Below, in pieces: positions 4,611 through 23,939 of a stretch of 64,000 nt of DNA. The stretch's first letter is position 1. The number at the start of each line of letters is the position of its first letter. Both the position numbers and the translations under genes were made by a program. The notes beneath the pieces were generated by a model. It was not told the DNA's origin, did not search any database, and was given only the letters and a program-made list of their open reading frames with translations. Origin of the DNA: an uncultured Acidobacteriota bacterium (GTDB lineage: Bacteria; Acidobacteriota; Vicinamibacteria; Vicinamibacterales; UBA2999); assembly GCA_963773045.1 (NCBI GenBank), contig CAVYZT010000013.1, positions 207,137 to 271,136 of the forward strand, in the 5' to 3' direction.

Positions 4611-4769
4611 GTCCGCATCTCGTCGTTGCCATTGCTGCGTCTGTGAACGGCCTTACCGCAACTTGGAGCGGCGCTGGCCATTCCAGCCGCTTCAAGCCCG
4701 TCCCAGGGTCCTCGCCCGGCGGCGACGAATTTGCAATCAACAGCCGAGAAGCCAGAGGAGGCCAGACCA

Positions 4770-5213
4770 ATGACCGTACGCGACATCATGACCGAGGACC
4801 CGGTGTGCTGCAGCCCGTCAACGCCGCTGCCCGAAGTAGCGAGACTCATGGTCGACTGCAACTGCGGTGAGATTCCCGTGACCGATGCAGACGGCATCCT
4901 GGTCGGCGTGATCACCGATCGCGACATCACGTGCCGCGCGGTGGCGAAGGACAAGAATCCGCTGACGCTGACTGCGAGTGACTGCATGTCGTCTCCAGTG
5001 GTGACGGTCACACCGACCACGAGCCTCGAGGAGTGCTGCGAATCGATGGAGGTCAACCAGGTTCGACGCCTCCCGGTAATCGATAGTCGAGGAAGCTGCT
5101 GCGGCATCGTCGCGCAAGCCGACATTGCGCGCCGCGCGCCGATCGATCAGGCTGCTCACGTCGTCAAGGACGTGTCCAGGCCGAGCGACACGCCATCCGC
5201 CGTCGGAGCGTAG
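4770..5213 (+). CDS. CBS-pair domain protein
   Basis: ATG 4770 preceded by GGAGG. MTVRDIMTEDPV... and a second CBS repeat (VRRLPVIDSRG..GIVAQADI). Confidence 0.8.
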   Translation: MTVRDIMTEDPVCCSPSTPLPEVARLMVDCNCGEIPVTDADGILVGVITDRDITCRAVAKDKNPLTLTASDCMSSPVVTVTPTTSLEECCESMEVNQVRRLPVIDSRGSCCGIVAQADIARRAPIDQAAHVVKDVSRPSDTPSAVGA

Positions 5214-7014: not shown

Positions 7015-7176
7015 TAGTTCAAAGTTGAAAAGTCCAAAGTTGAAAGTTTCAGTTTGGAGTTCAGTGAGAAGAATGTGAAGTTCCAAGTTCAGCAGCCGCG
7101 CGATGACTTTGAACTTGAAACTTCAACTGAACTGCAGACTTCAACTTAGAACTTTCAACTCTTGAACTTTCAACTT
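7015..7176. repeat. AT-rich imperfect inverted array of GTTGAAAGT/AGTTCAG words (two roughly 70-bp arms around CCGCGCGATGAC)
   Basis: Read directly. The reverse complement of the right arm re-uses the left-arm words in the same order. Confidence 0.8.
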
Positions 7177-7523
7177 TTTTCTGACGTCGTCCCCTTCATC
7201 CGTTCGTGCGCCTGCCGGTGCCATTCCTCGAACCGGTCGCGGACATGTGACGGCGGTCCGTAATAGGACCAGTGGCCCCACGGCCTCCACCAGAAGCCCC
7301 TGATGACCATCACCCAGAAGAAGATGAACAGCAGCGGAAAGAGGAATCCGAATCCCCACGGCCGATGCCACCCATAAGGGTACGGCGGCAGGCTGCCTGC
7401 CGACGCGCCGACCTGCGCCAGGCCCTGGGAGAGGCCCACGTTGTAGGCCACGCCGGCGGCAATGGCGACGGCCACTGCGGCCACCGCTGCGACGAACCAT
7501 CCGTTCCATCGATTCCCGTTCAT
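7170..7523 (-). CDS. Small Trp/Gly/Pro-rich membrane protein, first gene of the RR-HK operon
   Basis: ATG 7523 preceded by GGAGGG. One TM helix, then PYPYGWHRPWGFGFLFPLLFIFFW..FEEWHRQAHERM. Confidence 0.55.
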   Translation of the reverse strand: MNGNRWNGWFVAAVAAVAVAIAAGVAYNVGLSQGLAQVGASAGSLPPYPYGWHRPWGFGFLFPLLFIFFWVMVIRGFWWRPWGHWSYYGPPSHVRDRFEEWHRQAHERMKGTTSEKS

Positions 7524-7827
7524 GGTGTTTCCCTCCAAGAGTCGGGGCTGTCCACCTTCGCTGAAGCTACGGTGGACAAGTCCGCCTCCGCCCCGACTTC
7601 GCTCGAAGAGCTTCGTCGAGGTCTCGCCGGAGCGCTCTGCGCGACGGCGGACAAGGCTACGGTGCGACCGGAGCCTGGAGCAGAAGTGGATATCCGTCTC
7701 TGAAGACACTGTCCCGCGGGAATGTGGAGGAAATATGAGCCTTGTGACCTCTCCGCAAAAATTGATTGCGGCGCCGCCGATTCGGCTGGGAATCCCCGTC
7801 CTGTGACTCGCAGCCGAAGGGCCGCGC

Positions 7828-8874
7828 TCAGGGCTCGTCGTGCGGGACGATTTCGACCGTGGCTTGGGGCACGGCGCCGAGCAGCTGCTCGAGCGTCGAC
7901 CCGTGCCAGAGCAGTTCCAGGCGGGAACGGGCGCCCTGCCCGAGGATGACGCGGGTGATCTTCTCGCGTCGGGCAAAGGCGATCAGCCCGTCCGACGCTC
8001 GGTCGGCCTCGACGGGAACGACCATGGCGCCGAGACTCCTGGCGAGCTCGACATTTCCCTGCAAGATGCCGGCGTCGCCCGAGGAGCCATGATCCGCTTT
8101 CCCGTGGAGTGTCTCCACATGCGCGGCATACCAAGTCGACCCCAGCCTGTCGGCTAGCGCCGCAGCCGCGCGAATCGCTCGAGCTGCGCTCGCGGTCGCG
8201 CTCATCCACACCATGACGCGCTCCGGCGCCGGATGCGGCTGAATCCCGTGGCGCCAGTGAGTGCCGACCCGTTCTGCCGGCATCGGCCGCGGGCCTGCGG
8301 CCGAACGCCTCTCTAACTCTTCGGCAGCAATGTCGACCTGCATCACGTCATCGGCCCGGTCGAGAAAGGCTTCTGGAATCGTCTCCGTGGCGCGCACGCC
8401 GGTCTCCCGGGCGATGGCGTCCTTCAGCGACTCGATATGCTCGATGTTCACGGCCGTGATCACGTGAATCCCGGCGTCGAGAATGTCGATCACGTCCTCG
8501 TAGCGGCGCTCGCGGCGATGATCCGGCACAGCAGTGGACGCCAGCTCGTCGACGATGCAGGTGCGAGGCTTTCGCCGGACGATAGCATCGACGTCCGGCT
8601 CCTCGACCGACACGCCGCCGTAGTGGCTCGTGCGGGACGGGATGACCTCCAGGCCTTTGAGCGCCAGGTCCTGGTCGAGACGGGCGGACGGCGCGAGATA
8701 GCCGATCACGACGTCGACGCCATCGGCAGCGAGCGCTTGCGCTTCGTTGAGCATGTGACGGGTTCTGCCCAAATGCGCCCCGGCACCGATGTAAATGCGC
8801 AGTCTCGCGCGATCGCGCTCCTTGACCTGGGCCAGCAGCTCGTCGGCAGCGGAATGAACGTGCGGTGTGGACAT
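7828..8874 (-). CDS. Stand-alone KdpD N-terminal sensor domain plus Usp-like domain protein (paralogue 1, Walker A Lys replaced by Arg)
   Basis: LRIYIGAGAHLGRTRHML...VVIGY...VDELA...RRYEDVIDILDAGIHVITAVNIEHIESL matches the KdpD N-terminal pattern. The ORF ends after the Usp-like part. Confidence 0.8.
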   Translation of the reverse strand: MSTPHVHSAADELLAQVKERDRARLRIYIGAGAHLGRTRHMLNEAQALAADGVDVVIGYLAPSARLDQDLALKGLEVIPSRTSHYGGVSVEEPDVDAIVRRKPRTCIVDELASTAVPDHRRERRYEDVIDILDAGIHVITAVNIEHIESLKDAIARETGVRATETIPEAFLDRADDVMQVDIAAEELERRSAAGPRPMPAERVGTHWRHGIQPHPAPERVMVWMSATASAARAIRAAAALADRLGSTWYAAHVETLHGKADHGSSGDAGILQGNVELARSLGAMVVPVEADRASDGLIAFARREKITRVILGQGARSRLELLWHGSTLEQLLGAVPQATVEIVPHDEP

Positions 8875-8969
8875 TTGTCATCACTCCCAGCGGTGGTCAA
8901 CCACCAAGCAATCGGTTGCCGTTTAACCGTCAAAGATACGGATCTCTGAGAAATCAGTAAAGTGATCGC

Positions 8970-10079
8970 ATGCGCGACGACGCGTTGGCGCTGGTTGCCG
9001 TCGCCGCCATCGTCGCGCTCTTGCGGCTGGCCAGCCCGGTTGCGAATACGACGGTGGCGGCACTCTGCCTGGTGCTGGTCGTCCTGATCGTTGCCCGGAC
9101 GCTGAGCCGCCGCGCCGCGCTCACAGCGTCGCTCGTTGGCGTCCTCGCCTTCAACTTTTTCTTTCTTCCTCCGGTCGGTACGCTCACCATTGCCGATCCC
9201 CTGAACTGGGTCGCCGCTGGCGTGTTCCTGGCCCTGTCGTTGACCGTGAGCGAGCTGTCGGCCCGTGCCCGGCAGCAGACCGAGAAGGCGCACGCCCATC
9301 GTCTGGAGGCGGAGCGGCTCTATCGCGAATTGCAGGCCGCCTTCGATCGCGAGGCGCAGACCGAAGCCGACCGGCGGAGCGAGCGTCTGAAGAGCGAGCT
9401 GCTCGATGCCGTCACCCATAATCTGCGCACGCCGATCACGTCGATCAAGGCGTCAACGACGGCCCTGCTGTCACAGCCGTCGACCATGGGAGAAGCCGTT
9501 CGCCGAGAATTGTTGACCGTTGCGAATGAAGAAGCCGATCGACTGGATCTTCTGGTGGAAGACCTGATCGGCCTGGCTCGCATCCAGGCTGGAGAGCTTG
9601 GCCTTCAGATGTCGTGGTGCAGCCTGGACGATGTGATTGGCAGCGCCATCAAACGTGCCGAACGTCTGCTCGGGGCGCACACGCTCGAGGTTTCGGTCCC
9701 GCCGGATCTTCCGGTCGTCCGGGCCGACGCGCGCGCGCTCGAGGAGGTGGTGTTTCAGCTGCTGGAGAACGCGGCGAAGTATTCGCCACGCGGATCGCGC
9801 ATCGCGGTATCGGCGCGCGAAGAACCCGGTGAGCTGATCGAGATCCGAGTAGAGGACGAGGGTCCCGGCGTCGCCGCCGACGAGCGCGAACGCATCTTCG
9901 ACAAGTTCTATCGGTCGCCGGCCGCGGCGACCGCGGCCAGCGGCTCCGGGCTGGGCCTGGCGATCGTTCGTGGCATCGTCGATGCGCATCGAGGGGACGT
10001 GATGGTCACCGACCGCGCGGCGCAGCCCGGGGCGCGGTTCATCGTTCGTCTGCCGATTGGCGACGAGGACAACCCGTGA
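8970..10079 (+). CDS. kdpD: KdpD C-terminal half: DUF4118-type membrane domain plus HisKA plus HATPase_c
   Basis: Begins with KdpD-like TM helices (LAFNFFFLPPVGTLTIADP). H-box THNLRTPITSI. G-boxes DEGPGV and GSGLGLAI. Confidence 0.85.
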   Translation: MRDDALALVAVAAIVALLRLASPVANTTVAALCLVLVVLIVARTLSRRAALTASLVGVLAFNFFFLPPVGTLTIADPLNWVAAGVFLALSLTVSELSARARQQTEKAHAHRLEAERLYRELQAAFDREAQTEADRRSERLKSELLDAVTHNLRTPITSIKASTTALLSQPSTMGEAVRRELLTVANEEADRLDLLVEDLIGLARIQAGELGLQMSWCSLDDVIGSAIKRAERLLGAHTLEVSVPPDLPVVRADARALEEVVFQLLENAAKYSPRGSRIAVSAREEPGELIEIRVEDEGPGVAADERERIFDKFYRSPAAATAASGSGLGLAIVRGIVDAHRGDVMVTDRAAQPGARFIVRLPIGDEDNP

Positions 10080-10804
10080 GCCGGCCATTCCGAGTGCTGG
10101 TCGTGGACGACGAGCCGCAGATTCGGCGCGTCCTTCGCTTGGCCCTCGACAGTCAGGGATTCGATCTTCGCGTCGCCGCCGACGGCGAGTCGGCGCTGGA
10201 TACGATGCGCGACTGGCCACCCGATCTCGTCATCACCGATCTGTCGATGCCAGGAGTGGACGGTCTCGAGCTCTGCCGTCGCATCCGCGAGAAGAGCGCG
10301 GTGCCGATCATCGTCCTGTCGGTGAAGGGCGAGGAGCGGTCGAAGGTGGCCGCGCTCGACGCGGGCGCGGACGACTATGTGACCAAGCCCTTCGGCATGG
10401 ACGAGTTGCTCGCCCGAGTCCGGGCGGTTTCCCGCCGCGCCCCGGCCGACAGCCAACACGCCTCCCGGCTGACCGTGGGTGTGTTCACAATCGATATCGC
10501 TGCGCACACCGTGTTGATCGAAGGGCGGGATGTGCGGCTGACGCCGAAGGAGTTCGACCTGCTCGTCCATTTCGCTCGCAATCCAGGGAAGGTTTTGACC
10601 CATCGCGCCCTACTGGCGGGCGTATGGGGCGCCGAACATGCCGAGCAGAGCGAATACCTGCGCGTGTTCGTCGGGCAGCTGCGTAAGAAGATCGAGCCCG
10701 ACCCGTCGGAGCCGACGTACCTCCGCACCGAGCCGTGGGTCGGCTACCGGTTCGACCCGGGCGCCGCGGGCGGCGAACGCGATCCGCGGCCGGCCGCCGG
10801 CTGA
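10076..10804 (+). CDS. kdpE: OmpR-family response regulator KdpE
   Basis: 4-nt overlap with the kinase. REC plus winged helix (LRTEPWVGYRF). KdpE-like FGMDELLARVRA. Confidence 0.85.
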   Translation: MSRPFRVLVVDDEPQIRRVLRLALDSQGFDLRVAADGESALDTMRDWPPDLVITDLSMPGVDGLELCRRIREKSAVPIIVLSVKGEERSKVAALDAGADDYVTKPFGMDELLARVRAVSRRAPADSQHASRLTVGVFTIDIAAHTVLIEGRDVRLTPKEFDLLVHFARNPGKVLTHRALLAGVWGAEHAEQSEYLRVFVGQLRKKIEPDPSEPTYLRTEPWVGYRFDPGAAGGERDPRPAAG

Positions 10805-10930
10805 AAATCCCCGGCGGCGCGGAAAACCCAGCGCCTCACATCGAGCCGGCAGCGGTCTTTCCTCCGGAAAATCGAATATGCCCAGGAAACCAGGCGGCAC
10901 AGCTCATGCGCTACGCCTTGGCCGTGGGCG

Positions 10931-10947
10931 TTTACAACTTCTTTAGA
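10931..10947 (+). promoter_or_regulatory. Candidate KdpE operator: TTTACA-N5-TTTAGA direct repeat
   Basis: Two hexamers 11 bp centre to centre in the only AT-rich patch upstream of the porin-kdp genes. A TAGACT -10-like hexamer lies at 10978-10983. Confidence 0.35.
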
Positions 10948-10992
10948 AATCCTTTGATCGGCCCTTATGGCCGGCTCCCTAGACTGGGCTGC

Positions 10993-12186
10993 ATGCGCAA
11001 CTCATTCTCTGTTCTTGCAGTCGCTGCCATGCTAAGCCTGGTTGCGGTTGGGGCGAGCGCACAGACGCCGGCACCGGCCGAGCCGGCCGAGCCGGCCCAG
11101 GCGTCTCCGGCGGCGGCCACGGCTGCCGACTCCTGGCGCGACATGACCTTCGGTGCGACGCTCGAGGCTTATTACCAGTTCAACGGCAATCATCCGCCCG
11201 ATCGCATCTCGTTGCTGCGCGCCTACGACACGCGCGCCAACACGTTTGCGATTCAACAGGCGACGCTCGTCACCGAGCTGGCGCCCGCCGTCGACAAAGG
11301 ACGCCGCTTCGGGCTGCGCGCGGATTTGATGTTCGGCCAGGCCACCGAGACCGTTCAGGGCGGGCCGGCCAACGAGCCGCGCCCCGATGTCTATCGCCAC
11401 ATCTGGCAGGCGTACGGATCCTATGTCTTCCCAGTCGGCAAAGGCTTGCGCACCGACTTCGGCAAATTCGCTTCGAACCTCGGCTACGAGACCAACTACG
11501 CGAAGGACAACGATCACTTCTCACGCGCGTATCTCTTCAACTTCCTGCCGTTCTATCACTCCGGCCTGCGCACGTCGCTGCCGGTCGGTGACAAGGTGAC
11601 GCTGATGTACATGCTGACCAACGGCATCCAGCAGACCGAGGATTTCAACGACTTCAAGTCGAATCACTTCAGCGCCGTGATTGCGCCGGTCGCCAACGTC
11701 TCGTGGACGACGAGCTATTACTTCGGCCAGGAACAGGCCGATGGCGGAGATCCGGGCGGTCCGGATGGATTCTTCCGCGTGTTCGACACCTACTTCTCCT
11801 GGACGCCGAACGCGCGCGGGCTGATTGGCGCCGACTTCAACCACGTTACCAACGAGGTGAACAAGGGTGACGAGGCGACTGCCCTCACCGGCTTGGGCCT
11901 TTACGGTCGGTTCAAGCCGTCGGATCCATCGACGCTCGCCATCCGCTACGAGCGGCTCGACGACGAAGGACTGTTCGGCGGCATCGATCAGGTACTGCAG
12001 GAGATCACCTTCACGGCGGAATGGAAGTTTGCCGACGGGTTCCTCGCGCGTCTGGAGCTCAGGGACGACTGGTCGAACGAGCGCTTCTTCACCGGCAGCG
12101 GCGGCGGCACCGACAAGCGCACGAGCCAGCCGACGGCGATGCTCGCCGTCGTGTGGTGGATGGGGAACAAGACGGGGACTTGGTAG
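10993..12186 (+). CDS. Outer-membrane beta-barrel porin (OmpL/porin-2-like), kdp-associated
   Basis: Signal peptide MRNSFSVLAVAAMLSLVAVGASAQ. Alternating beta-strand pattern. C-terminal aromatic residue (...KTGTW). Confidence 0.7.
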   Translation: MRNSFSVLAVAAMLSLVAVGASAQTPAPAEPAEPAQASPAAATAADSWRDMTFGATLEAYYQFNGNHPPDRISLLRAYDTRANTFAIQQATLVTELAPAVDKGRRFGLRADLMFGQATETVQGGPANEPRPDVYRHIWQAYGSYVFPVGKGLRTDFGKFASNLGYETNYAKDNDHFSRAYLFNFLPFYHSGLRTSLPVGDKVTLMYMLTNGIQQTEDFNDFKSNHFSAVIAPVANVSWTTSYYFGQEQADGGDPGGPDGFFRVFDTYFSWTPNARGLIGADFNHVTNEVNKGDEATALTGLGLYGRFKPSDPSTLAIRYERLDDEGLFGGIDQVLQEITFTAEWKFADGFLARLELRDDWSNERFFTGSGGGTDKRTSQPTAMLAVVWWMGNKTGTW

Positions 12187-12276
12187 CTGTTCGCCTTTCG
12201 CTTTTCGCAATTCGCAACGCACCCACGCTCGTGCGAACCGCGAACCGCGAACCGCGAATAGCGAACAGCGAATTGC
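12187..12276. repeat. Inverted heptad arrays (NNTTCGC)n ... (GCGAANN)n forming a long imperfect hairpin
   Basis: Left arm gctgttcgcctttcgcttttcgcaattcgc. Right arm gcgaacc x3, gcgaata, gcgaaca, gcgaatt. Confidence 0.85.
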
Positions 12277-12295: not shown

Positions 12296-12379
12296 ATGCT
12301 GCTAATTGGAATGATCGTTCTTGGGCTCGCAACCTTTGCCGCGATGCTGGGGTTCGTCACGTTCTGCGATCGCATCTGA
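12296..12379 (+). CDS. 27-aa hydrophobic peptide upstream of kdpF (KdpF/KdpG-like accessory peptide?)
   Basis: GGAGG 4 nt before the ATG. MLLIGMIVLGLATFAAMLGFVTFCDRI forms a single TM helix. Below the ORF-track size cutoff. Confidence 0.4.
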   Translation: MLLIGMIVLGLATFAAMLGFVTFCDRI

Positions 12380-12388
12380 GGGGAACGC

Positions 12389-12469
12389 CATGACCGTCCT
12401 GTCTCTCGTATTGAGCATCGCCGCATTCGTGTACCTCGTTTACGCGATGCTGCGCCCAGAGCGGTTTTG
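12389..12469 (+). CDS. kdpF: K+-transporting ATPase subunit F
   Basis: 26-aa MTVLSLVLSIAAFVYLVYAMLRPERF with the KdpF C-terminal signature (Y-L-x-Y-A-[LM]-L-R-P-E-R-F). GAGGGG RBS. Immediately upstream of kdpA. Confidence 0.75.
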
Positions 12470-12510
12470 AACCGCGAATAGCGAACCGCGAACAGCGAAC
12501 AGCGAACAGC
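12470..12510. repeat. Heptad array (GCGAANN)n between kdpF and kdpA
   Basis: gcgaata gcgaacc gcgaaca gcgaaca gcgaaca. Same unit as 12233-12276. Confidence 0.85.
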
Positions 12511-12512
12511 AT

Positions 12513-14219
12513 ATGACCACCGAATACATCGCCATCGTCATCACGATCGCATTCACGATCGCGACCAGTCTGATCCTCGGCCGGTACATGTTCAAGGTGT
12601 TCACCGGCCAGCGGACCCTGCTCGATCCGGCCTTGGTTCCGATCGAGCGCCTGGTGCTCCGGGTGACCGGTGTGGATCCGAATCAACAGCAGGATTGGAA
12701 GCAGTATTCGGTGTCACTGCTGGTCTCGAACGTCGTGATGTGGCTCGCCACCTTTGCCATCGTCTCGCTTCAGCAGTGGCTGCCGATCAATCCCGACGGC
12801 ATCGCGAACATGGAGCCGACGCTGTCGTTCAACACGATCTCGAGCTTCACGACCAACACCAACCTGCAGCACTACAGCGGCGAGACGGGGTTGTCGTACT
12901 TCTCGCAGATGTTCGTCATCTCGTTTCTGCAATTCGTGACCGCGGCCACCGGCGTCGCCGCGTGCATCGCCACCATCCGCGGCCTGGGAAACAATCGCCT
13001 CACCGAGCTTGGCAACTTCTACGTCGATCTCACGCGGGCGACCGTTCGCCTCTTCCTCCCGCTGGCCCTGCTGGTCTCGGTCGTGATCATGTCGCAGGGA
13101 ACGCCGATGACGTTCGAGGGGGCGGCCAAGGCGACGACGGTTGAGGGACAGGAACAGTCGATCGCGCGCGGCGTGACGGCGGCAGTCGTGTCGATCAAGC
13201 AGCTGGGCACCAACGGCGGTGGGTACTTCGGCCCGAACTCGGCGCATCCCTTCGAGAACCCGACGCCGCTCACCAATTTCGTCGAGACGTGGTCGATCAC
13301 GATCATCCCCATGGCGATGGTCTGGACTCTGGGGTACATGCTCGGGCGGCGCCGCCTCGCCGTTACGATCTTCGCGACCATGCTCGCCCTCTATCTCCCG
13401 ATGGTCGTGTTCGGCGTGTCGCAGGAAGTCGGGGGCAATCCCGCGATTGCGCGCATGGGCGTCGATCAGTCCACCGGGTCGATGGAGGGCAAGGAAGTGC
13501 GATTCGGCGCCGGGCTCTCGGCGCTGTGGGCGGTGACGACGACGGTGACGTCGAACGGGTCGGTGAACAGCATGCACGACTCGATGACGCCGCTCGGCGG
13601 GTTGATGCCCCTCATCGGCATGTGGCTGAACAACATCTTCGGCGGCGTTGGTGTCGGCTTCATCAACATGCTGATCTTCGTCATCGTCGCGGTGTTCGTC
13701 GCCGGCATGATGATCGGCCGCACGCCCGAGTTCCTGGGCAAGAAGGTCGAAGCCAAGGAGATGAAGCTGGCCAGCCTGGCGATGCTCTGGCATCCGCTGG
13801 CCATTCTCGTGGGCACCGCCATCGCCGCCTACGTGTGGGTGATCACGCCCGATCCGGGAACGGCGCTGGCCTGGCTGAAGAATCCGGGTCCGCATGGCTT
13901 CTCCGAGATGTTGTACGAGTTCAGCTCGTCGGCGGCGAACAACGGCTCCGGCTTCGAAGGGCTGGGCGACAACACGCCCTTCTGGAACATCGCCTGCGGC
14001 CTCGTGATGCTGCTGTCGCGCTACATCCCGATCATCGCGCCGCTGGCGCTGGCGGGATCGCTGGCGGCAAAGCCGGCGGCGCCGGAGACAGCCGGCTCGC
14101 TTCGAGCCGACACGCCGACGTTCGGCTTCACGCTGTGGGCCGTGATCGTGATTCTCGGTTTGTTGATGTTCATGCCGGTCGCAGTGCTGGGACCGATTGC
14201 GGAGTACCTGGCGCTGTGA
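12513..14219 (+). CDS. kdpA: K+-transporting ATPase subunit A
   Basis: 568-aa polytopic protein with a KdpA-like N-terminus and length, sitting within the kdp context. Confidence 0.95.
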   Translation: MTTEYIAIVITIAFTIATSLILGRYMFKVFTGQRTLLDPALVPIERLVLRVTGVDPNQQQDWKQYSVSLLVSNVVMWLATFAIVSLQQWLPINPDGIANMEPTLSFNTISSFTTNTNLQHYSGETGLSYFSQMFVISFLQFVTAATGVAACIATIRGLGNNRLTELGNFYVDLTRATVRLFLPLALLVSVVIMSQGTPMTFEGAAKATTVEGQEQSIARGVTAAVVSIKQLGTNGGGYFGPNSAHPFENPTPLTNFVETWSITIIPMAMVWTLGYMLGRRRLAVTIFATMLALYLPMVVFGVSQEVGGNPAIARMGVDQSTGSMEGKEVRFGAGLSALWAVTTTVTSNGSVNSMHDSMTPLGGLMPLIGMWLNNIFGGVGVGFINMLIFVIVAVFVAGMMIGRTPEFLGKKVEAKEMKLASLAMLWHPLAILVGTAIAAYVWVITPDPGTALAWLKNPGPHGFSEMLYEFSSSAANNGSGFEGLGDNTPFWNIACGLVMLLSRYIPIIAPLALAGSLAAKPAAPETAGSLRADTPTFGFTLWAVIVILGLLMFMPVAVLGPIAEYLAL

Positions 14220-14222
14220 AAG

Positions 14223-14296
14223 GGCTTGGGACTTGGGGCTTGGGACTTGGGGTTTAGCTGGCCTTCAGTCCCAGGCCCCAAGCCCCAGGCCCCAAG
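14223..14296. repeat. Inverted heptad arrays (CTTGGGR)n / (CCCCARG)n forming a hairpin between kdpA and kdpC
   Basis: ggcttgggacttggggcttgggacttgggg ... agtcccaggccccaagccccaggccccaag. Confidence 0.85.
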
Positions 14297-14308: not shown

Positions 14309-14902
14309 ATGTTGAAGGAACTGAGACAAGGCGTCCTCTTCACGCTGATCACGATGCTGATGCTCGGCGGTGTCTATCACGGTGTGCTGTGGACGATCGG
14401 GCAGGTCGCGTTTTCTTCTGAGGCAGAAGGCAGCCTGATTCGGCGGGCGGACGGCACGATCGTCGGCTCGCGGCTGATCGCCCAGAAGTTCACGCGGCCC
14501 GAGTACTTCCAGCCACGCCCGTCCGGCGTGGACTACAACGCGGCTTCGACCGGCGGCACCAACTACGGGCCCTCCAATCCGGATCATCTGAAGGCGGTTC
14601 AGGAGCGGCTCGACGCCGTCATCGCGCTCGACAAGGTCAAGGCGGGCGAGGTGCCTTCCGAAATGGTGACTGCGAGCGGCGGCGGCCTCGATCCTCACAT
14701 TCCGCCCGCCGCAGCGCGGCTTCAGTCGGCTCGAGTGGCCGCCGCGCGCGGCGTGCCGGCCGATCGAGTGCGAGCGTTGATTGATGAACACACCGAGGCG
14801 CCGACGCTCGGCTTTCTCGGTCGTGCCCGGGTCAACGTGCTGGAGCTGAACCTGGCCCTCGACGAGGCGCTCGGCGCACCCAAGCCGGTTGAACCGCGGT
14901 AG
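14309..14902 (+). CDS. kdpC: K+-transporting ATPase subunit C
   Basis: N-terminal TM helix. [31 protein letters not shown] and [11 protein letters not shown] match KdpC conserved blocks. Confidence 0.95.
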
Positions 14903-14939
14903 GCACAGCCCCAAGCCCCAAGCCAAAAGACACAGAACC

Positions 14940-17045
<2,106 letters not shown>

Positions 17046-17046
17046 G

Positions 17047-17313
17047 GAAGGCAGACAAGGCAGAAGGCACAAGGCAGAAGGCACAAGGCAGAAGGCACAA
17101 GGCAGAAGGCACAAGGCAGAAGGCGACAAGGCAGAAGGCACAAGGCAGAAGGCAACAAGGCAGAAGGCACAAGGCAGAAGGCAACAAGGCAGAAGGCACA
17201 AGGCAGAAGGCACAAGGCAGAAGGCACAAAGGCAGAAGGCACAAGGCAGAAGGCACAAGGCAGAAGGCCCAAGCCCCAAGCCCCAAGCCCCAAGCCCCAA
17301 GCCTCAAGCCTCA
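17047..17313. repeat. About 220-bp heptad array (GAAGGCA/CAAGGCA, 14-bp super-unit, about 30 heptads) followed by (CCCCAAG)n
   Basis: Read directly. It starts 2 nt after the kdpB stop and ends 9 nt before the next start. Occasional 8-nt units occur. Confidence 0.95.
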
Positions 17314-17321
17314 GGACAACC

Positions 17322-18509
17322 GTGACGACCAACCGCAGCGCGTTCGAAGATCGGCGTCCCGATGCGGCGTCGCTGCTCGCCAAGCTCAACGAGAGCGACC
17401 GGGCTCGGCTTCGCGTGTACATCGGCGCGGCGCCAGGGGTCGGCAAGACCTATCAGATGCTCGAGGACGCGCATCAACTGAAGCGCCAGGGCATCGACGT
17501 CGTCATCGGCTACATCGAGCCGCACGGCCGCGCCGACACACTGTCGCTGGTCGACGGGCTGGAGATCGTCCCGCGGCGGGTCCTGTCGTACCGGGACGTG
17601 AAGCTCGAGGAGATGGATGTTGAGGCGATCAAGGCGAGGAAGCCGCAGATCGTCCTGGTGGACGAGCTGGCGCACACCAACGTGCCCGGCTCAGCGCACG
17701 AGAAGCGGTACGAAGACGTCCTCGATCTGCTGAACAGCGGCATCTCCGTGATCACGGCGATCAACATTCAGCACATCGAGTCGCTCAACGACGTGGTCGT
17801 CAGAAGCAGCGGCATTCACGTGCGCGAGACCGTTCCAGACTGGTTTCTGCACCGCGCCGACGAGGTGGTCAACGTCGACGTCTCGGTCGAGACGCTGCGC
17901 ACGCGCCTGCTGCAGGGCAAGATCTACGGCGTCGAGAAGATCGAGCAGGCGCTCGCCAACTTCTTTCGCAAGGGCAATCTGTCGACGCTGCGCGAGCTGG
18001 CGCTGCGCCAGCTGGCGATGAACCAGGCCGAGCAGTCGCACGAGTATCGCGAGCGCGAAGGGCTCGAGGACCCGGCGATTCCGGAAAAAGTGATGGTCGC
18101 CATCGCGTCGCGCGGCAGCGCGACGAGACTGCTGCGCACCGGGTCGCGAATCGCCGGCCGGCTGGCGTCCGACTGGTACGCCGTGTACGTCGAGACGCCG
18201 AGCGAGGAGCCAGGGAGTATCACTCCCGAGGCGCACGCCGCCTTGATGAACAACATCCGCTTCGCCGAGCATCTCGGTGCGCGCGTCGTCAAGCTCAAGG
18301 GCAAGCGCGTGGCCGACGCGCTCATCGAGTTCGCGCGCCGCGAAGGCATCACGCACGTGATCTTCGGGCAGTCGGCCAGGTCGCGCTGGAGCCTCTTCTG
18401 GAGCGGCTCGATCGTCAACCGCTTCCTCGCCGAGGTGAGGAATGCCACCGTCCACGTCGTCCCGCAGGGGCCAGACGACGAGGCGAAGGCGGGCGAGGCG
18501 CCCGCATAA
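17322..18509 (+). CDS. Stand-alone KdpD N-terminal sensor domain plus Usp domain protein (paralogue 2, intact Walker A)
   Basis: LRVYIGAAPGVGKTYQML...VVIGYIEPHGR...VDELAHTN...KRYEDVLDLLNSGISVITAINIQHIESL, then a Usp-like half. No membrane or kinase part. Confidence 0.85.
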   Translation: MTTNRSAFEDRRPDAASLLAKLNESDRARLRVYIGAAPGVGKTYQMLEDAHQLKRQGIDVVIGYIEPHGRADTLSLVDGLEIVPRRVLSYRDVKLEEMDVEAIKARKPQIVLVDELAHTNVPGSAHEKRYEDVLDLLNSGISVITAINIQHIESLNDVVVRSSGIHVRETVPDWFLHRADEVVNVDVSVETLRTRLLQGKIYGVEKIEQALANFFRKGNLSTLRELALRQLAMNQAEQSHEYREREGLEDPAIPEKVMVAIASRGSATRLLRTGSRIAGRLASDWYAVYVETPSEEPGSITPEAHAALMNNIRFAEHLGARVVKLKGKRVADALIEFARREGITHVIFGQSARSRWSLFWSGSIVNRFLAEVRNATVHVVPQGPDDEAKAGEAPA

Positions 18510-18511
18510 CC

Positions 18512-20360
18512 ATGACGCTCCGCACACGCCTGATCGGGACCTTCGTGGTCATCCTCGCCGCGCTGGCCGGCCTCGGCGCATGGAGCGCCTGGCGGCTGTG
18601 GGACATGGGTGCCGTCTCCAACCGCATCATCGCGGACAACTACGGGTCGGTCGTGGCCGCCCAGCAGATGAAGGAGAGTCTCGAGCGCCAGGACTCGGCG
18701 CTCCTCTTCGCGCTGGTTGGCGAACGCGATCGGGCCGAGCGGCAACTGGCAGAGCATCGGGCGCGGTTCCGCGCCGCGTTGGCGGTTGCCGCCGACAACA
18801 TCACCGAGCCCGGTGAATCGGAGATCATCGCCGCGATCTCGAAGGCAGAGCCGCAGTACGCGGCGACCATCGACCGGCTGATGGCCGCAACCCTCTCTCC
18901 CGCTCCCGGCAAGAGCGTGCGCGGGTATTTCGACGAGGCCGAGCCCGCGTTCAACCAGCTTCGCGCCGACAGCGACGCCCTGCTCACCTTGAACCAGGAG
19001 GCGATGCAGCGAAAGGCCACCGACGCGGCGACGATCGCCCGCCGCAATTTCACGGTGGCGGTGACGCTGGCCGTGATCCTGACCCTGGCTGGCGGCCTGA
19101 TCGCGGCGGTCGTGGCCGGCGGGGTGCTTCGTCCCATTGGCGAACTGACCCGTGCGACGACGGCCATCGCGGCCGGTGAGCTGGATGTCGCCGTTCCGGT
19201 CCGGCGCGACGATGAGATTGGGCGGCTGGGGCAGGCGTTCAACGACATGGCCGGGCGGCTGCGCGAAGTGCGCGAGTCGAACCTCGGCGAGCTGCTGATG
19301 GCGCGGCAAACCGCCGAAGCCGCGATCGATTCGCTCTACGACCCGGTGATCGTCACCGACGCGCAGGGCCGGGTCACGCGGCTCAACAACGCCGCCGAGC
19401 CGCTGTTCGGGCGTGAGTCCGACGCGCACGGCCGCCCGCTGGCTGAGGTGGCGCGCGATCCGCTCGTCGCCGACGCCGTCAGCGAGGTGCTGAGCTCGCA
19501 GCAGGCCGTGGCCCTCGAAGGCGCGGCGGCGACTTTCACCGTGAACGTGGCCGATACCGAGCGCAGCTTCAGGCTGCGTTCGACGCCGATGCGCGACTCG
19601 CACGGACAGCTGCTGGGCGCCGTGCTCCTGCTCGAGGACGTCACGCATCTTCACGAAGTCGATCGCCTGAAATCGGAGTTCATCGCCGCGGCCTCCCACG
19701 AGCTGCGCACGCCATTGACGAGTCTTGAAATGGGGCTGCACCTCGTCCTCGAAGATCCGAGCAATCTCACCGCGCGCCAGCAGGAGATTCTGTACACGTG
19801 CCGCAGCGAAAGCCGGCGGCTCGCCCGACTGTCGACCGACTTGCTCGATCTGTCGAAGATCGAGTCGGGTCGGACGCCCCCGCGACTGGCGAGCGTTCCG
19901 ACCGCCGCGCTGGTGCGCAGCGCCATCGAGCCGCTCCGCCTGCAGGTCGAGGCCCAGGGGCTCGGCCTCGTCGTCGAGGTCGAGCCAGACCTGCCGCCGG
20001 TGCTTGCCGACCGCGCCCAGATCGAGCGAGTTCTCGCCAATCTCGTGACCAATGCCGCGCGTGCGACTCCGCGCGGCGGCCGCATCACGGTCACGGCCGA
20101 CCTGCGGCAGGACTACATGGCGATTGCCGTCGCCGACACCGGCGTGGGCATCCCGGCGGAGTACCTGAGACGCATGTTCGAGCCGTTCGTCCAGGTGCCC
20201 AACGTCCCGGCTGGCGCCGGCGGCCTCGGTCTGGCCATCTCGCAGACGGCTCATCGAGGCGCACCACGGGCAGATCTCCGCTCAGTCGGCGCCGGGATCG
20301 GGCGCCGTCTTCACCTTCACGTTGCCGGTCGCACACGCGGCGGCCGAGGTGGAGACGTGA
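18512..20360 (+). CDS. Sensor histidine kinase (TM-4HB periplasmic-TM-HAMP-PAS-HisKA-HATPase_c) with an apparent 1-nt insertion near 20246
   Basis: H-box SHELRTPLTSL. N and G boxes present. After GLGLAISQ the conserved tail [28 protein letters not shown]..ET-stop is found only in the +2 frame (stop 20358-20360). Confidence 0.8.
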
Positions 20361-21061
20361 GAATCCTGATCGTGGACGACGACGGGCCGTCGCGCCACAT
20401 GTTCCGCTTTGCGCTCGAGGACCAGCACGAGCCGCACGAAGCCGCGGACGGGGCCTCGGCGCTCGAGGTGATGCGCGCGAAGGGGCCGTTCGATGTGGTG
20501 CTGCTCGACCTCAGGATGCCGGGGATGAGCGGCCTCGAAGTGTTGAAGCGCGTTCACCGGCGCTCGCCGCAGACCGCGGTCATCGTGATGACGGCGTACA
20601 GCTCGTTCGCCGTTCCGGCCCAGGCGATGCGCGCCGGCGCGACGCACTTTCTGAGCAAGCCCACCGATCCGAGCGCGCTCCGCGCGGCGGTGGCGGCGAC
20701 GCGCCGAAGGGTTGTGCCGCCGGACTTGGCCATCACGCTCAACGGATTTACCGTCGAGCCGTGGGGCGACCCGGCCCGGGTCGAACGCGACGGCTCGGTC
20801 GTGCACACGTTCCATGTGAGTCACGGGCTTGAATCATGGAACCGTGTCATGCAGGTACGCCTTGGACCACAGGCGCTCCAGCGCACCATGGCCCGAAACC
20901 AGGACAACGTCAGCACGGTTGCCGCTCAAATTGCGCGCCGTACCTTGGCGGACCACTTGTGGCGTGAGGGGACGTTGCCACCGAAGGAAGGACTGGTCGT
21001 CGACGAAGCGGATGCCTCGCTCGTTGCGGCGGTCGTCAGCGAGGCCGGCACCGCACAGTAG
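20357..21061 (+). CDS. Response regulator: REC domain plus about 110-aa C-terminal domain of unknown type
   Basis: GTG 20357 overlaps the restored kinase stop (GTGA). VRILIVDDD...VVLLDLRMPGMSG...SKP. The C-terminal half carries no motif I recognise. Confidence 0.75.
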   Translation: MRILIVDDDGPSRHMFRFALEDQHEPHEAADGASALEVMRAKGPFDVVLLDLRMPGMSGLEVLKRVHRRSPQTAVIVMTAYSSFAVPAQAMRAGATHFLSKPTDPSALRAAVAATRRRVVPPDLAITLNGFTVEPWGDPARVERDGSVVHTFHVSHGLESWNRVMQVRLGPQALQRTMARNQDNVSTVAAQIARRTLADHLWREGTLPPKEGLVVDEADASLVAAVVSEAGTAQ

Positions 21062-21076
21062 TGTCGGACGTTTTGC

Positions 21077-22000
21077 GTGGGGTATGACATGAGCCCGATC
21101 ACTCGCGTGCTTGGCGGCGCGGTCATGGCCGTTGCCGTTGGCTGCACCCAGGGCCCGACGACGATCCTGGAGCGGCTGTCCGAGGCGCGCGCGCTGGCGT
21201 CGGAAGCCATCGTGCAGTTGACGAAAGCCGCCGACGCGTCCAACTGCGCCGTCATGGCCGGCAGCGACGAGACCGCCGCAAGCTGTGTGAAGGAAGCCGA
21301 TCGAGCGAACGCTGCGGTCCAAACCACCACTGCGCAGCTCAGACCGCTCCTGGCCGGCCTCGGGTACTCGAAGGAATCGCAACTGCTCGATGAGTTCGAC
21401 GGGCGCTTTGCCGCGTATCGGGAGTTGGACCGGGAGATCCTGGAGATGGCGGTTGAGAGCAGCAATCTGAAGGCACAACGGTTGTCCTTTGGTCCGGCGC
21501 GAGAGCAGGCCGATGCGGTCGGCGACGCGCTCGGCTCGATTGCGCCGCTCGATGTCGCGAAGCCGTTGGCGACCGGGCCTGCCACTGGTCCAGGCGCGAG
21601 CGCCGCCGGGCGCATCAGTGCCCTTGCGGCGATCGTGATGATGTCGGTCCGCGAGATCCAGGCTCTGCAGGCGCCTCACATCGCCGAGCCGAACGACGCA
21701 CCGATGACGCAGATCGAGCAGCGGATGAGCAAGTTGGAAGAGACGGCCCGCGGGGCTCTTCAAGCCCTGGCGTCGACGATTCCGCCGCCGGCGCAGCCCA
21801 ACGTGAAGGCTGCTGCCGCGGCATTCGATCAGTTCATGAAGATCAATGCCGAGATTCTCAGTCTGTCGCGGCGAAACAGCAACGTCCGCGCGCTTGCCTT
21901 GACGATGGGCAAGAAGCGCACGCTGATCGCAGCCTGCGAGGAGAGCCTGCGCGCGCTGCAGGATGCGCTGGCCAAGCGCGGGTTCACTGGGACGAGGTGA
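21077..22000 (+). CDS. Probable lipoprotein with an all-helical four-helix-bundle (MCP N-terminal-like) domain
   Basis: Leader ..GGAVMAVAVGC. Long amphipathic helices ending ...SRRNSNVRALALTMGKKRTLIAACEESL, typical of 4HB_MCP sensors. Confidence 0.55.
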   Translation: MGYDMSPITRVLGGAVMAVAVGCTQGPTTILERLSEARALASEAIVQLTKAADASNCAVMAGSDETAASCVKEADRANAAVQTTTAQLRPLLAGLGYSKESQLLDEFDGRFAAYRELDREILEMAVESSNLKAQRLSFGPAREQADAVGDALGSIAPLDVAKPLATGPATGPGASAAGRISALAAIVMMSVREIQALQAPHIAEPNDAPMTQIEQRMSKLEETARGALQALASTIPPPAQPNVKAAAAAFDQFMKINAEILSLSRRNSNVRALALTMGKKRTLIAACEESLRALQDALAKRGFTGTR

Positions 22001-22078
22001 GCATCTGCTTTCGGCACTCTGCTTTCGGCCTTCGGCAAGAGAGCTGATAGCTGAAAGCTGAGAGCTGAGGGCACTCCT

Positions 22079-23939
22079 TTACAGTTCCACCTGAATGCCG
22101 ATCTCGACGACGCGTTCGGGGGGGATTCTGAAGAACGACGTCGCTCGCACGGCATTGCGAGCAGTGAAGACGAACAGCCGCTCGCGCCACAGCGCCATCC
22201 CAGGCCGCTTGGTGGCAATCAGCGTCTCGATGCCGAGAAAGAACGTCGTCCGGGCCATTCGGAACGGGAACCCATCCTTCGCCGCGTCCTTCAGCGCCTT
22301 CGGCACGTCCGGCTGCTCGGCAAAGCCGTACTGCAGAAACACGCGGTAGAAGCCCTCTTCCAGGGGTTGGATCTGAATCCGCTTGGCGGAATTCACGTGA
22401 GGCATATCGCTGGTCGTCACCGTCAGCAGAATCACGCGTTCGTGCAGCACCTGGTTGTGCTCGAGATTGTGGAGCAGCGTTGGCGGTGTGCCCTGACCGC
22501 TGCTCGTCATGAAGATCGCCGTGCCCGACACGCGGGGTGGCGGCTGCCACTTGATGTCCTTCATGAACCGCTCGAGCGGATAGATGAGCTCGTTGATGCG
22601 CGAGGCGAGGAGCGCGCGACCCGCTTTCCACGTGGACAGGACGGTATAGACCAGCGCGCCGACGATGAGCGGGAACCAGCCGCCATCGGCGATCTTCGTG
22701 AGGTTGGCGCCGAAGAATCCCAGATCGATGGCGAGAAAGAACCCGGCCAGCGAACCGGCGACGGCGCGCGACACGCCCCACGAATCGCGCGCGACGAGAT
22801 ACGCCAGCAGAGTCGTGATCACCATCGTCGACGTGACGGCGATGCCGTAGGCGGCCGCCAGCGCGCTCGAGCTGCGGAAGCCGAGCACCAGGCCGATGGT
22901 CGCGATCATCAGCGCGGTGTTGACCTGCGGGATGTAGATCTGCCCCTCGGTTGTCTCCGAAGTGTGCTCGATGTCCAGCCGCGGACAGTAGCCGAGCTGG
23001 ATCGCCTGCCGCGTCAGCGAAAAGGCGCCCGAGATCAGCGCTTGTGACGCGATGACGGCTGCGGAAGTCGCGAGAATCACCAGGGGAAAGAGCCCCCAGC
23101 GCGGCGCCATGTGATAGAAGGGCGACTCGGCCAGCTCCGGATGATCGAGCAGCATCCCTCCTTGACCGAGGTAGTTCATGAACAGCGCCGGGAGCACGAG
23201 CGTAAACCAGGCCACGCGAATCGGCTGGCGGCCGAAATGGCCCATGTCCGCGTAGAGCGCTTCGCCGCCGGTCACCACCAAAAACACCGAGCCGAGCACG
23301 ATGAAGCCGTGCCATCCATTGCCGATCAGGAATCGCGCTGCGTGGAGCCGGGTTGAGCGAGGCGAGCACGTGAGGATTCTGAACGATCCAGTACACGCCG
23401 AGCCCGCCGATGGTCAAAAACCAGACCACCATGACCGGCCCGAAGAACGTGCCGACTCGATGCGTCCCGTGGCGCTGAATGAGAAACAGCGCGAAGAGGA
23501 TGGCGATCGTGGTCGGGACCACGATCGGCTCGAACACGTCGGTCGCAACCGCCAGGCCCTCGACGGCGCCCAGCACCGAGATGGCCGGTGTGATCATGCC
23601 GTCGCCGTAGAGCAGGGCCGCGCCGAACAGGCCCAGCGTAATCAGCCTGGCGCGGCTGCGCCGCCGGGCGGCCGGCTGCTGCGAGACCAGGGCCATGAGC
23701 GCCAGGATGCCGCCTTCGCCCTTGTTGTCGGCGCGCATGACGAAGACCAGGTACTTGATCGAGATGATGAACGTCAGCGCGTAGAAAATCAGCGACAGCA
23801 CGCCGAGTACGTTGTCGTGTGTCGGCGTGATGCCATGCGCGCCATGAAAGCATTCCTTCAAGGCATAGAGCACGCTCGTGCCGATGTCGCCATAGACGAC
23901 TCCCAGCGCCCCAAGTGTCAGTACAGCGAGCTGTCGGCC
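22079..23939 (-). pseudogene. kup: Kup/HAK/KT K+ uptake transporter, disrupted (frameshift at 23345 and no in-frame start codon)
   Basis: N-terminal part LGALGVVYGDIGTSVLYALKE... lies in one frame. HAARFLIGNGWHGFIVLGSVFLVVTGGEALYADMGHFG... lies in another. Confidence 0.8.

Follow-up and report, generated by a model that had tools for sequence, protein, structure and literature searches.

The kdp locus described here combines the split form of Kdp control that is normal for the Acidobacteriota with a second, stand-alone KdpD N-terminal/Usp protein, N2, which is specific to one lineage, degenerate in its catalytic motifs and under purifying selection. On balance we favor the reading that N2 would have lost its activity and come to serve as a lineage-specific, non-catalytic modulator of that control, and we consider this reasonably likely. 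The locus lies in a window of 64,000 nucleotides, the whole stretch of DNA that was analyzed, and its features are collected in Table 1. The KdpD N-terminal domain has only recently been shown to be a serine kinase, one that shuts off the KdpFABC pump. If the loss of the catalytic lysine and of the adenine clamp amounts to inactivity, N2 would represent a naturally occurring pseudokinase within this new class of kinases; the split architecture itself has been described before and is no novelty.

Table 1. Features of the kdp locus, in coordinates of the window
Feature	Position	Strand	Basis or remark
orf122, small protein	7141..7509	-	divergent neighbor of the kinase in relatives
Conserved element TGTGGAGGAAATATGAGC	7723..7740	+	alignment of window, L005, L001 and L088
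N2 cassette, approximate extent (3' flank, N2 and 95-bp upstream region)	7772..8969	.	~1.2 kb
N2, stand-alone KdpD-N/Usp paralogue, degenerate catalytic motifs	7828..8874	-	ORF, domain searches, alignments
N2-HKc spacer	8875..8969	.	95 bp; 48% G+C (window 65%)
Imperfect inverted repeat GGTGGT-CA-ACCACC	8892..8905	.	GGTGGTCAACCACC
HKc, membrane histidine kinase	8970..10079	+	369 aa; DUF4118, HisKA and HATPase_c by domain search
kdpE, OmpR-type response regulator	10076..10804	+	domain search
BBP2/OmpL-like porin	10735..12186	+	domain search, relatives' loci
kdpF	12390..12470	+	MTVLSLVLSIAAFVYLVYAMLRPERF, read from sequence
kdpA	12513..14219	+	domain match, 770 bits
kdpC	14309..14902	+	domain match; between kdpA and kdpB
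kdpB	14889..17045	+	domain match
N1, canonical stand-alone KdpD-N/Usp	17322..18509	+	domain match, alignments
4HB_MCP-HAMP-PAS histidine kinase	18512..21061	+	domain match; conserved neighbor of N1

KdpD occurs here in two kinds of chain, a KdpD-N/Usp gene and a TM-DHp-CA kinase gene, with kdpE also present. The kinase chain of this split KdpD is HKc. Its reading frame has no in-frame start codon further upstream, and its stop and the start of kdpE share four nucleotides (GTGA, 10076-10079); the domain content, the 95-bp spacer and this overlap were all correctly given in a preliminary description of the DNA. HKc lacks a GAF domain, with DUF4118 extending to residue 108 and HisKA beginning at residue 141. 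It is ~145 residues short relative to the kinase of locus L003, and a 507-aa relative has ~145 additional residues lying after the membrane part and before the H-box. Database relatives of a size similar to that of HKc are numerous, and GAF-less kinases of 380-445 aa with DUF4118 adjoin kdpE in ~27 loci, in none of which is the kinase fused to KdpD-N. The three closest loci (L088, L089 and L090) also have a short kinase together with kdpE.

The other chain of the split KdpD is N1, the presumed serine-kinase chain, whose catalytic motifs (GKT, Y, DE and R190) are all intact. Its position downstream of kdpB recurs in 80 Acidobacteriota loci as well as in L088-L090, and the pump genes lie upstream of it in the 80 loci wherever the contig reaches that far; each of the 80 has one stand-alone KdpD-N copy and none has a second. 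The pump genes here follow the order F-A-C-B, which is common to L003, L088, L089 and L090, and kdpB carries the DKTGT and TGES motifs, the serine of the latter being Ser198, which corresponds to the target of the serine kinase in E. coli, Ser162. The short peptide upstream of kdpA we take to be KdpF from its likeness to known KdpF peptides. The true start of kdpB is probably ~50 nt downstream of 14889, and that of the porin, judged from homologues of 390-401 aa, probably near 10990. A 1-nt frame change near 20240 joins the histidine kinase next to N1 to a downstream receiver ORF in the window. On the other side of the locus, orf122 gave no match in a family search and corresponds to L088 positions 9495-9851 (50% amino acid and 77% nucleotide identity). 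An Rfam search of the whole window found no family, the c-di-AMP riboswitch included.

This arrangement is the normal, already published architecture of the Acidobacteriota and nothing peculiar to this locus. Separate KdpD/Usp and histidine-kinase chains were reported by Silberberg et al. (2024, Nat Commun) to occur "most commonly in Acidobacteriota" (PMC11018627), the split KdpD of Acidobacteriota and Chloroflexota consisting of a KdpD/Usp serine-kinase chain and a TM/GAF/DHpCA chain (PMC11018627). The locus in the window resembles those systems in its separate chains, in having kdpE next to the kinase and in having the serine-kinase chain, N1, downstream of the pump. It differs in that the kinase chain lacks GAF and in that a second, degenerate KdpD-N/Usp gene stands divergently beside the kinase; N2 is upstream of the kinase rather than downstream of the pump genes, and nothing on duplicated or double KdpD domains was found in PMC11018627. 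A split kdpD with two divergent kdp operons is known from Alicyclobacillus acidocaldarius (Schleussinger, Schmid and Bakker 2006, as cited in PMC11018627), and the likeness lies in the pieces of kdpD being in divergently transcribed units; there, however, the serine-kinase chain is described as remaining downstream of the pump, and the account in PMC11018627, as far as it goes, gives no indication of a degenerate Walker A motif or a second copy. The short KdpD proteins of Deinococcus, Anabaena and other cyanobacteria consist of KdpD-N/Usp only, the same domains as N1 and N2, but they keep GKT, which N2 does not; the Deinococcus geothermalis protein acts as a kinase on E. coli KdpB, and c-di-AMP stimulates it (PMC11018627). 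The host of the present locus is a soil acidobacterium. The preliminary description had read the locus as a two-piece K+ sensor, and the division of KdpD stands; what does not is its choice of N2 as the N-terminal half, as the canonical half is N1.

N2 itself is a protein of 348 aa whose assignment to KdpD-N is secure, with 195.1 bits against Pfam KdpD PF02702 (cut-off 26.1; profile positions 2-174 of 210) and E = 3.7e-33 against the solved KdpD N-domain 2r8r. The domain is nevertheless incomplete, as the C-terminal helical segment of PF02702 is missing. The Usp-like part that had been noted earlier is real but weak by profile (19.5 bits, under the cut-off of 24); it aligns along its full length with the Usp domains of the family, and its predicted structure matches 7ji4 with a target-normalized TM-score of 0.84 and an rmsd of 2.8. 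This fold match is the one usable result of the structure models, which as predictions say nothing on degeneracy: mean pLDDT is 60.9 for the full N2 model and 59.0 for the canonical N1 control, with the same low-confidence stretch in both. The Firmicute c-di-AMP motif, (A/G/C)xSxSxxN (PMC8214093), is unmatched in the alignment of N1, N2 and the 378-aa family. Canonical proteins of 378 aa are the closest relatives of N2 (55.6% mean identity), and the N2 clade has been seen on only ~5 contigs. A scan of species-representative genomes gave no match to N2, and a metagenome scan with N2-clade peptides returned just two loci, both with canonical GKT.

The most conspicuous feature of N2 is the state of its nucleotide site. 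Its Walker A motif reads AGAHLGRT and matches AAPGVGKT of N1 position by position in the alignment; the column was checked against N1, 2r8r, ~200 family members and 176 domains from 50%-identity representatives, so that the Lys-to-Arg change first noticed in the raw sequence does fall in the P-loop. Lys37 is present in 100% of the ~200 relatives and in 168 of the 176 representative domains, and arginine at this position is limited to N2 and its sister P0002 (AGPPLART). Further losses bring the changes to G34H, K37R, Y39R, H113S, Q145E, N151K, R163T and R188E, and of the 169 family columns with conservation of 95% or more, 65 (38%) are altered or deleted. Residue 39, which is Y, F or W in the family, is Arg in both N2 lineages, leaving the adenine clamp incomplete, and a 30-aa linker deletion shared with P0002 takes out the C-terminal helical segment NFFRKGNLxxLRELALR. 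Other residues are kept, namely T38, D109, E110 and R190, with Walker B reading VDELA. In E. coli, phosphorylation of KdpB is abolished by a Walker A mutation, or when W39 and R190 are mutated together (PMC11018627). The nucleotide site of N2, which has lost key catalytic residues, is probably impaired, in keeping with the earlier suggestion that the nucleotide-binding half may be inactive; N2 may still bind nucleotide or be active to some extent, given that the K-to-R change is conservative and that T38, D109, E110 and R190 are kept.

Comparison with related loci places the arrival of N2 late. No KdpD-N gene lies upstream of the kinase in L088, L089 or L090, which are syntenic with the window (kinase-kdpE-porin-kdpA-C-B-N1-HAMP/PAS kinase) and close to it in sequence (KdpA 89-96%, N1 86-97% identity), and the entire orf122-kinase spacer of L088 aligns to window positions 7652-7771, beyond the far side of N2, with kinase homology restarting at 8971. 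For these two reasons N2 is best described as an insertion: it is a lineage-specific extra paralogue that came later to its place next to the kinase, on a cassette lying in reverse orientation immediately 5' of the HKc ATG. The conserved element TGTGGAGGAAATATGAGC marks the displacement. Its place in relatives that lack N2 is ~30-45 nt before the kinase start, and here it is ~1.2 kb away from the kinase, beyond N2; in L001, a locus with an N2 orthologue, it is on the reverse strand downstream of N2, and L090 has a degenerate copy.

Despite its degenerate motifs, N2 is under purifying selection and functional. Between the window and the L001 orthologue dN/dS is 0.19 at dS 0.80, with 0.18 for the N domain and 0.18 for the Usp domain, and canonical KdpD-N copies at comparable dS give 0.04-0.24. 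The length of the ORF and the ribosome-binding site are conserved between the lineages, a GGAG Shine-Dalgarno-like sequence standing 9 nt 5' of the ATG here and AGGAG in the same place in L001. We regard it as highly improbable that N2 is a decaying, functionless duplicate. Such a reading would suit the long branch, the tiny clade and the loss of most catalytic motifs and of 30 aa, but it is at odds with intact 348-codon ORFs across a dS of 0.8, with constraint on both domains and with the conserved ribosome-binding site.

It is informative to consider N2 in light of a set of tandem double KdpD-N/Usp proteins, on which we found no publications. These proteins, of 690-825 aa, make up 23 of the nearest 150 50%-identity representatives, and most of them consist of one canonical unit and one unit without K37, E110 or Y39. 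The degenerate units share N2's kinds of loss (Y39R, N151, R163 and the linker), the linker being absent in five of them (P0246, P0249, P0252, P0264 and P0340), and the gene for P0246 is directly downstream of kdpABC. The analogy is a loose one, because most degenerate units, unlike N2, keep Lys37/GKT and because their degenerations are independent of that of N2; in addition, the tandem units lie in one chain, whereas N1 and N2 come from two genes that lie 8.4 kb from each other on opposite strands. What the cases have in common is a degenerate and a canonical unit together in a kdp locus, and it is this pairing that makes N2 most likely a non-catalytic modulator of Kdp regulation. Taken together, N2 and the recurrent tandem pairs suggest a module that operates in pairs.

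In the mechanism that we propose, HKc and KdpE (8970-10804) exert transcriptional control, kdpF-A-C-B encode the pump, and N1 keeps every residue that the atypical serine kinase requires for phosphorylation of KdpB. N2 is a fourth component, which arrived on the ~1.2-kb cassette before the start of the kinase. It would no longer phosphorylate KdpB and may instead, without catalysis of its own, be a partner or competitor that either pairs with N1 or takes the site of N1 on KdpB, and would thereby modulate the post-translational inhibition of the pump. It is also worth considering that N2 adjoins the kinase and is 8.4 kb from N1; a role directed at the kinase would fit just as well. A broader version, in which degenerate KdpD-N units in general, N2 and the tandem units alike, are pseudokinase subunits that tune, block or reverse KdpB phosphorylation, is one that we think quite unlikely. 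If true, it would supply a regulator for KdpB phosphorylation, a step described so far as rapid and irreversible.

The alternative that fares best starts from the preliminary description and takes N2 as the cognate N-terminal half of HKc. The two, expressed from a shared divergent promoter, would come together again in trans as a KdpD-like sensor, in which the Arg variant would bind ATP or have a regulatory part, tuning the balance of kinase and phosphatase and not acting on KdpB. A link between ATP binding by the N-domain and control of the phosphatase has been drawn (Jung and Altendorf 1998, as cited in PMC11018627), and the divergent adjacency over 95 bp is kept in an independent assembly, L005, which shows 94.5% identity over 3.1 kb together with the same layout; a third contig (Logan, short-read) has the same gene order around N2, its upstream partial ORF not being identified as the kinase. 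Nonetheless, the kinase family does without an adjacent KdpD-N gene in L088-L090 and in ~27 other loci, N2 was inserted late, and a canonical N-terminal chain, N1, is present. Likewise, there is no accelerated protein evolution of HKc, or co-evolution, after the arrival of N2 in the N2-bearing lineage: omega for HKc is 0.136, its dN to the outgroups is nearly equal to that of L088, and its higher divergence goes along with a higher dS, indicating a mosaic locus rather than faster protein change. Overall we judge this alternative unlikely.

Could N2 still be an enzyme, with altered chemistry or an altered target, for example a phosphorylase/phosphatase that takes the inhibitory phosphate off KdpB Ser162 or a kinase of some other substrate? 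The reverse reaction is also catalyzed by certain protein serine kinases with Walker motifs, HprK/P among them, and N2 is under purifying selection and keeps T38, D109, E110 and R190 despite the loss of 38% of the conserved columns. However, D109 is present in 174 and R190 in 173 of the 176 representative domains, clearly degenerate tandem units included, so that their retention is no sign of catalysis, and G34, K37, Y39, H113, Q145, N151 and R163 are all gone; we think it very unlikely that N2 is an enzyme of this kind. Finally, an inversion mis-assembly at about 8875-8969 that split one full-length kdpD, which the preliminary description had allowed for, can be dismissed almost entirely: the window may be a long-read assembly with indel errors (the frame change near 20240 is a probable 1-nt frameshift) and sister assemblies contain frameshifted genes, but L005 bears out the layout and the third contig the gene order around N2, the end of N2 resembles that of other stand-alone proteins, the kinase has the same kind of start as its homologues, and the fused gene is never seen in related genomes.

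The promoters of N2 and HKc are both presumed to lie in the spacer between the two genes, and in 7700-9100 no sigma-70-like promoter and no intrinsic terminator were found. The sequence at 8892-8905 had been described as a perfect 14-bp palindrome and is in fact an inverted repeat with 6-bp arms and a 2-nt spacer, the reverse complement of GGTGGTCAACCACC being GGTGGTTGACCACC. Repeats of this 6+2+6 type number 49 in the window, and those with 6-bp arms and a spacer of 0-4 nt number 250, or 0.37 expected per 95 bp. The motif does not recur elsewhere beyond chance, and folding of the region is no better than that of shuffled sequence (z = -0.25); as an imperfect, common and unrepeated element that folds like shuffles, it was rejected as an operator or RNA hairpin. 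A candidate shared spacer motif, CGTATCYTYRAC, was not enriched. L001 has a similar GC-rich inverted repeat in the same place, two lineages being too few to judge it, and the spacer as a whole is partly alignable to the 95 bp upstream of N2 in that locus.

What is new in this locus is a rare, selectively maintained KdpD-N paralogue, N2, which judged by its sequence is catalytically degenerate. It lies within a canonical split Kdp system (see table), and the divided KdpD is itself known biology. Silberberg et al. (2024, PMC11018627) describe the split architecture, most often in Acidobacteriota, in which the serine-kinase chain typically stays downstream of the pump; for Alicyclobacillus, an earlier report cited there placed the pieces of kdpD in a pair of divergent operons. 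Split KdpD is also the norm in related loci. Stand-alone KdpD-N/Usp proteins of about 378–395 aa are very numerous, and N1, the KdpD-N/Usp protein encoded downstream of kdpB, found 80 Acidobacteriota loci when used as query against species-representative genomes, mostly in Blastocatellia, Pyrinomonadaceae and Vicinamibacterales. Where the contig was long enough, the KdpD-N gene in these loci lies downstream of the pump genes, usually with a HAMP/PAS kinase next, and a second KdpD-N gene is absent from all 80. About 27 of the loci carry, beside kdpE and upstream of the pump genes, a DUF4118 kinase of 380–445 aa that lacks GAF and is in no case fused to a KdpD-N domain. Hence, of the two-piece K+ sensor proposed in the preliminary description, the split itself stands, although as an already known architecture, while N2 is not its N-terminal half; that piece is N1, whose counterparts lie downstream of the pump in relatives.

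Features of the kdp locus in order along the window
Feature	Position	Strand	Remarks
Tandem-CBS protein	4731-5213	+	upstream of the kdp cluster
HAMP kinase		-	
Response regulator		-	
orf122	7141-7509	-	small protein, no family match
18-nt element	7723-7740		TGTGGAGGAAATATGAGC
N2	7828-8874	-	KdpD-N/Usp, 348 aa
N2–HKc spacer			95 bp
HKc	8970-10079	+	KdpD-type histidine kinase, 369 aa; DUF4118 6-108, HisKA 141-208, HATPase_c 253-363
kdpE		+	start overlaps HKc stop (GTGA)
BBP2 porin			
27-aa ORF	12296-12379		hydrophobic, MLLIGMIVLGLATFAAMLGFVTFCDRI; extra, precedes kdpF
kdpF, kdpA, kdpC, kdpB	12296-14219, 14309-17045		pump genes; first interval starts with the 27-aa ORF
N1	17322-18509	+	canonical KdpD-N/Usp, 395 aa
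4HB_MCP-HAMP-PAS histidine kinase with receiver	18512-21061		
Kup-type K+ transporter	21984-23873	-	just past the kdp cluster
Heptanucleotide arrays	7016-7177, 12186-12272, 12469-12510, 14222-14296, 17047-17310		in many spacers

Comparison with the closest relatives of the adjacent kinase HKc shows that N2 is an added, inserted paralogue. These relatives (74–81% identical), in loci L088, L089 and L090, share the window order of HKc, kdpE, porin, kdpA, kdpC, kdpB, N1 and HAMP/PAS kinase, and all three lack a KdpD-N gene on the upstream side of HKc. In L088, whose N1 and KdpA are 97% and 96% identical to those of the window, an orf122 homologue is the immediate divergent neighbor of HKc, and the spacer between them aligns over its whole length with window positions 7652–7771, beyond N2. 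An 18-nt element precedes the HKc start by about 30–45 nt in L088 (about 9955–9972), and L090 has a degenerate copy; in the window and in two related loci that also carry N2, L005 and L001 (1172–1189 in the latter), it lies downstream of N2. The insertion thus split this element from the kinase, and because both spacer and element align on the far side of N2, the gene with its 95-bp upstream region (~7772–8969) looks like a cassette inserted directly 5′ of the HKc ATG, probably in a single event that predates the divergence of the window and L001 lineages. The element is conserved although its flanks are not alignable; it looks like a Shine-Dalgarno sequence with a start codon, but the short ORFs behind it show no conservation. 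Divergence from L088 rises across the locus, with dS of 0.19 for N1, 0.36 for kdpA, 0.40 for kdpB, 0.64 for kdpC, 0.65 for kdpE and 0.89 for HKc, which marks the locus as a recombination mosaic. No acceleration of HKc protein evolution was seen (omega 0.136).

Silberberg et al. showed that the N-domain of KdpD acts on KdpB Ser162 as an atypical serine kinase, an activity that depends on Walker A, W39/R190 and D109/E110 (PMC11018627). In the window, KdpB retains the target serine of the TGES motif (here Ser198), and N2 lacks residues experimentally required for its phosphorylation. The Lys-to-Arg change suspected in Walker A is real: AGAHLGRT aligns with AAPGVGKT of N1 and with 2r8r, a KdpD N-domain of known crystal structure, and the lysine is 100% conserved among about 200 aligned family members. 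N2 numbering coincides up to about residue 195 with that of the E. coli KdpD sequence used as reference, which matches the published mutant positions G36/K37/T38, W39, D109/E110 and R190. On this numbering, N2 and its sister lineage (P0002) share the losses K37R and Y39R and further losses at G34, H113, N115, Q145, N151, R163 and R188. Both also lack 30 aa that include the invariant NFFRKGNLxxLRELALR segment, and G36A is an extra change in the sister lineage. Altogether, 65 of the 169 columns with at least 95% family conservation are changed or deleted in N2, which retains T38, D109, E110 and R190.

Similar degeneracy occurs in tandem double KdpD-N/Usp proteins of 690–825 aa, which make up 23 of the 150 nearest 50%-identity representatives. 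When all 176 domains of these representatives were aligned to a family profile, most tandem proteins proved to have one canonical and one degenerate unit, the latter having lost K37 (to T/A/N), E110 (to G/A/D) or aromatic 39 (often to R), usually with Q145, N151 and R163. Five degenerate units (P0246, P0249, P0252, P0264 and P0340) also lack the linker segment missing from N2. The P0246 gene (locus L091, 8001–10256) immediately follows kdpABC, and genes for a DUF4118 kinase and KdpE lie upstream. Serine-kinase residues are also missing from a few full-length KdpDs, such as P0393 (K37L, E110D). In the literature searched, we found no paper on either KdpD pseudokinases or KdpD-N proteins of the tandem type.

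We infer that N2 is a non-catalytic module modulating the Kdp regulatory system; by analogy with the tandem proteins, it would most plausibly act by pairing with N1 or by competing at KdpB. It is possible that N2 has residual or altered enzymatic activity, as Lys-to-Arg is a conservative change; D109 and R190, however, persist in nearly all degenerate tandem units, and their retention in N2 is therefore no evidence of catalysis. A role directed at the adjacent HKc, as first suggested, is possible but less likely, because close relatives run the same kinase without N2. That N2 is a dead gene is disfavored. Its dN/dS is 0.19 at dS 0.80 (window versus L001), equal in the N and Usp domains, compared with 0.04–0.24 (median 0.12) for canonical KdpD-N copies at similar dS and 0.06–0.125 for N1; its Shine-Dalgarno sequence and ORF length are conserved, and it is under purifying selection. 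An assembly artefact is likewise disfavored: the inversion considered in the preliminary description is excluded because L005, an independent assembly 94.5% identical over 3.1 kb, repeats the divergent layout, and a third, short-read contig, compared at the level of gene order, agrees around N2.

The relatives of N2 are very few. Three sequences make up its 90%-identity cluster, and the one further N2-like cluster, P0002, from a farmland metagenome, is 76% identical. All other matches keep the GKT motif and reach at most 53% identity by BLASTP, or 58% when aligned columns are counted. In a library of sequences clustered at 50% identity (1.84 billion representatives), N2 represents itself. On a long branch, it is closest to a 378-aa family (mean identity 55.6%, versus 44% to N1-type proteins), whose genes lie downstream of kdpB in L002 and L003.

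The preliminary description observed the junction largely correctly and interpreted it only partly so. Both ORFs have the predicted domains (N2 matches Pfam KdpD, PF02702, with 195 bits over profile positions 2–174 of 210, and Usp weakly, its 19.5 bits falling short of the 24-bit cut-off); HKc allows no in-frame upstream extension, and the 95-bp spacing and the kdpE overlap are as described. The exception is the "14-bp perfect palindrome" in the spacer, whose reverse complement mismatches at the center, making it a 6+2+6 inverted repeat. Repeats built in just this way number 49 in the window, and those with 6-bp arms and spacers of 0–4 nt number 250, or 0.37 expected per 95 bp; recurrence elsewhere is not beyond chance, and in folding the region does not surpass shuffled sequence.

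HKc has no GAF domain, which work in E. coli ties to intracellular K+ sensing in KdpD. Nearly all of the best 120 of 4436 HKc matches (E <= 1e-30) are likewise short DUF4118-HisKA-HATPase_c proteins of ~360–450 aa. An N1-type gene followed by a 4HB_MCP-HAMP-PAS histidine kinase gene (17322–21061 in the window; loci L008–L090) occurs in most of the 80 related loci, and the conservation of this pair suggests that the serine-kinase chain has a second kinase partner. The window kinase is an apparent 849-aa hybrid, probably a frameshift fusion near 20240: its HATPase_c end (…LIEAHHGQISAQSAPGSGAVFTFTLPV…) lies in another frame and runs into a stop, the receiver being a separate ORF, and the frame change reflects either a genuine mutation or an error of 1 nt in the assembly. 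Several further two-component systems lie within the window. The Kup transporter and tandem-CBS protein flank the kdp cluster, and the neighborhood is therefore a K+ homeostasis island. The pump order kdpF-A-C-B, rather than F-A-B-C, recurs in L002, L003, L088, L089 and L090. The heptanucleotide arrays resemble cyanobacterial STRR repeats; they comprise ~31 copies of GAAGGCA/ACAAGGC and then ~7 of AAGCCCC between kdpB and N1, CTTGGGA repeats and their inverse between kdpA and kdpC, and GCGAACN arrays on both sides of kdpF, ending at the kdpA ATG, with similar GCGAANN arrays in L088.
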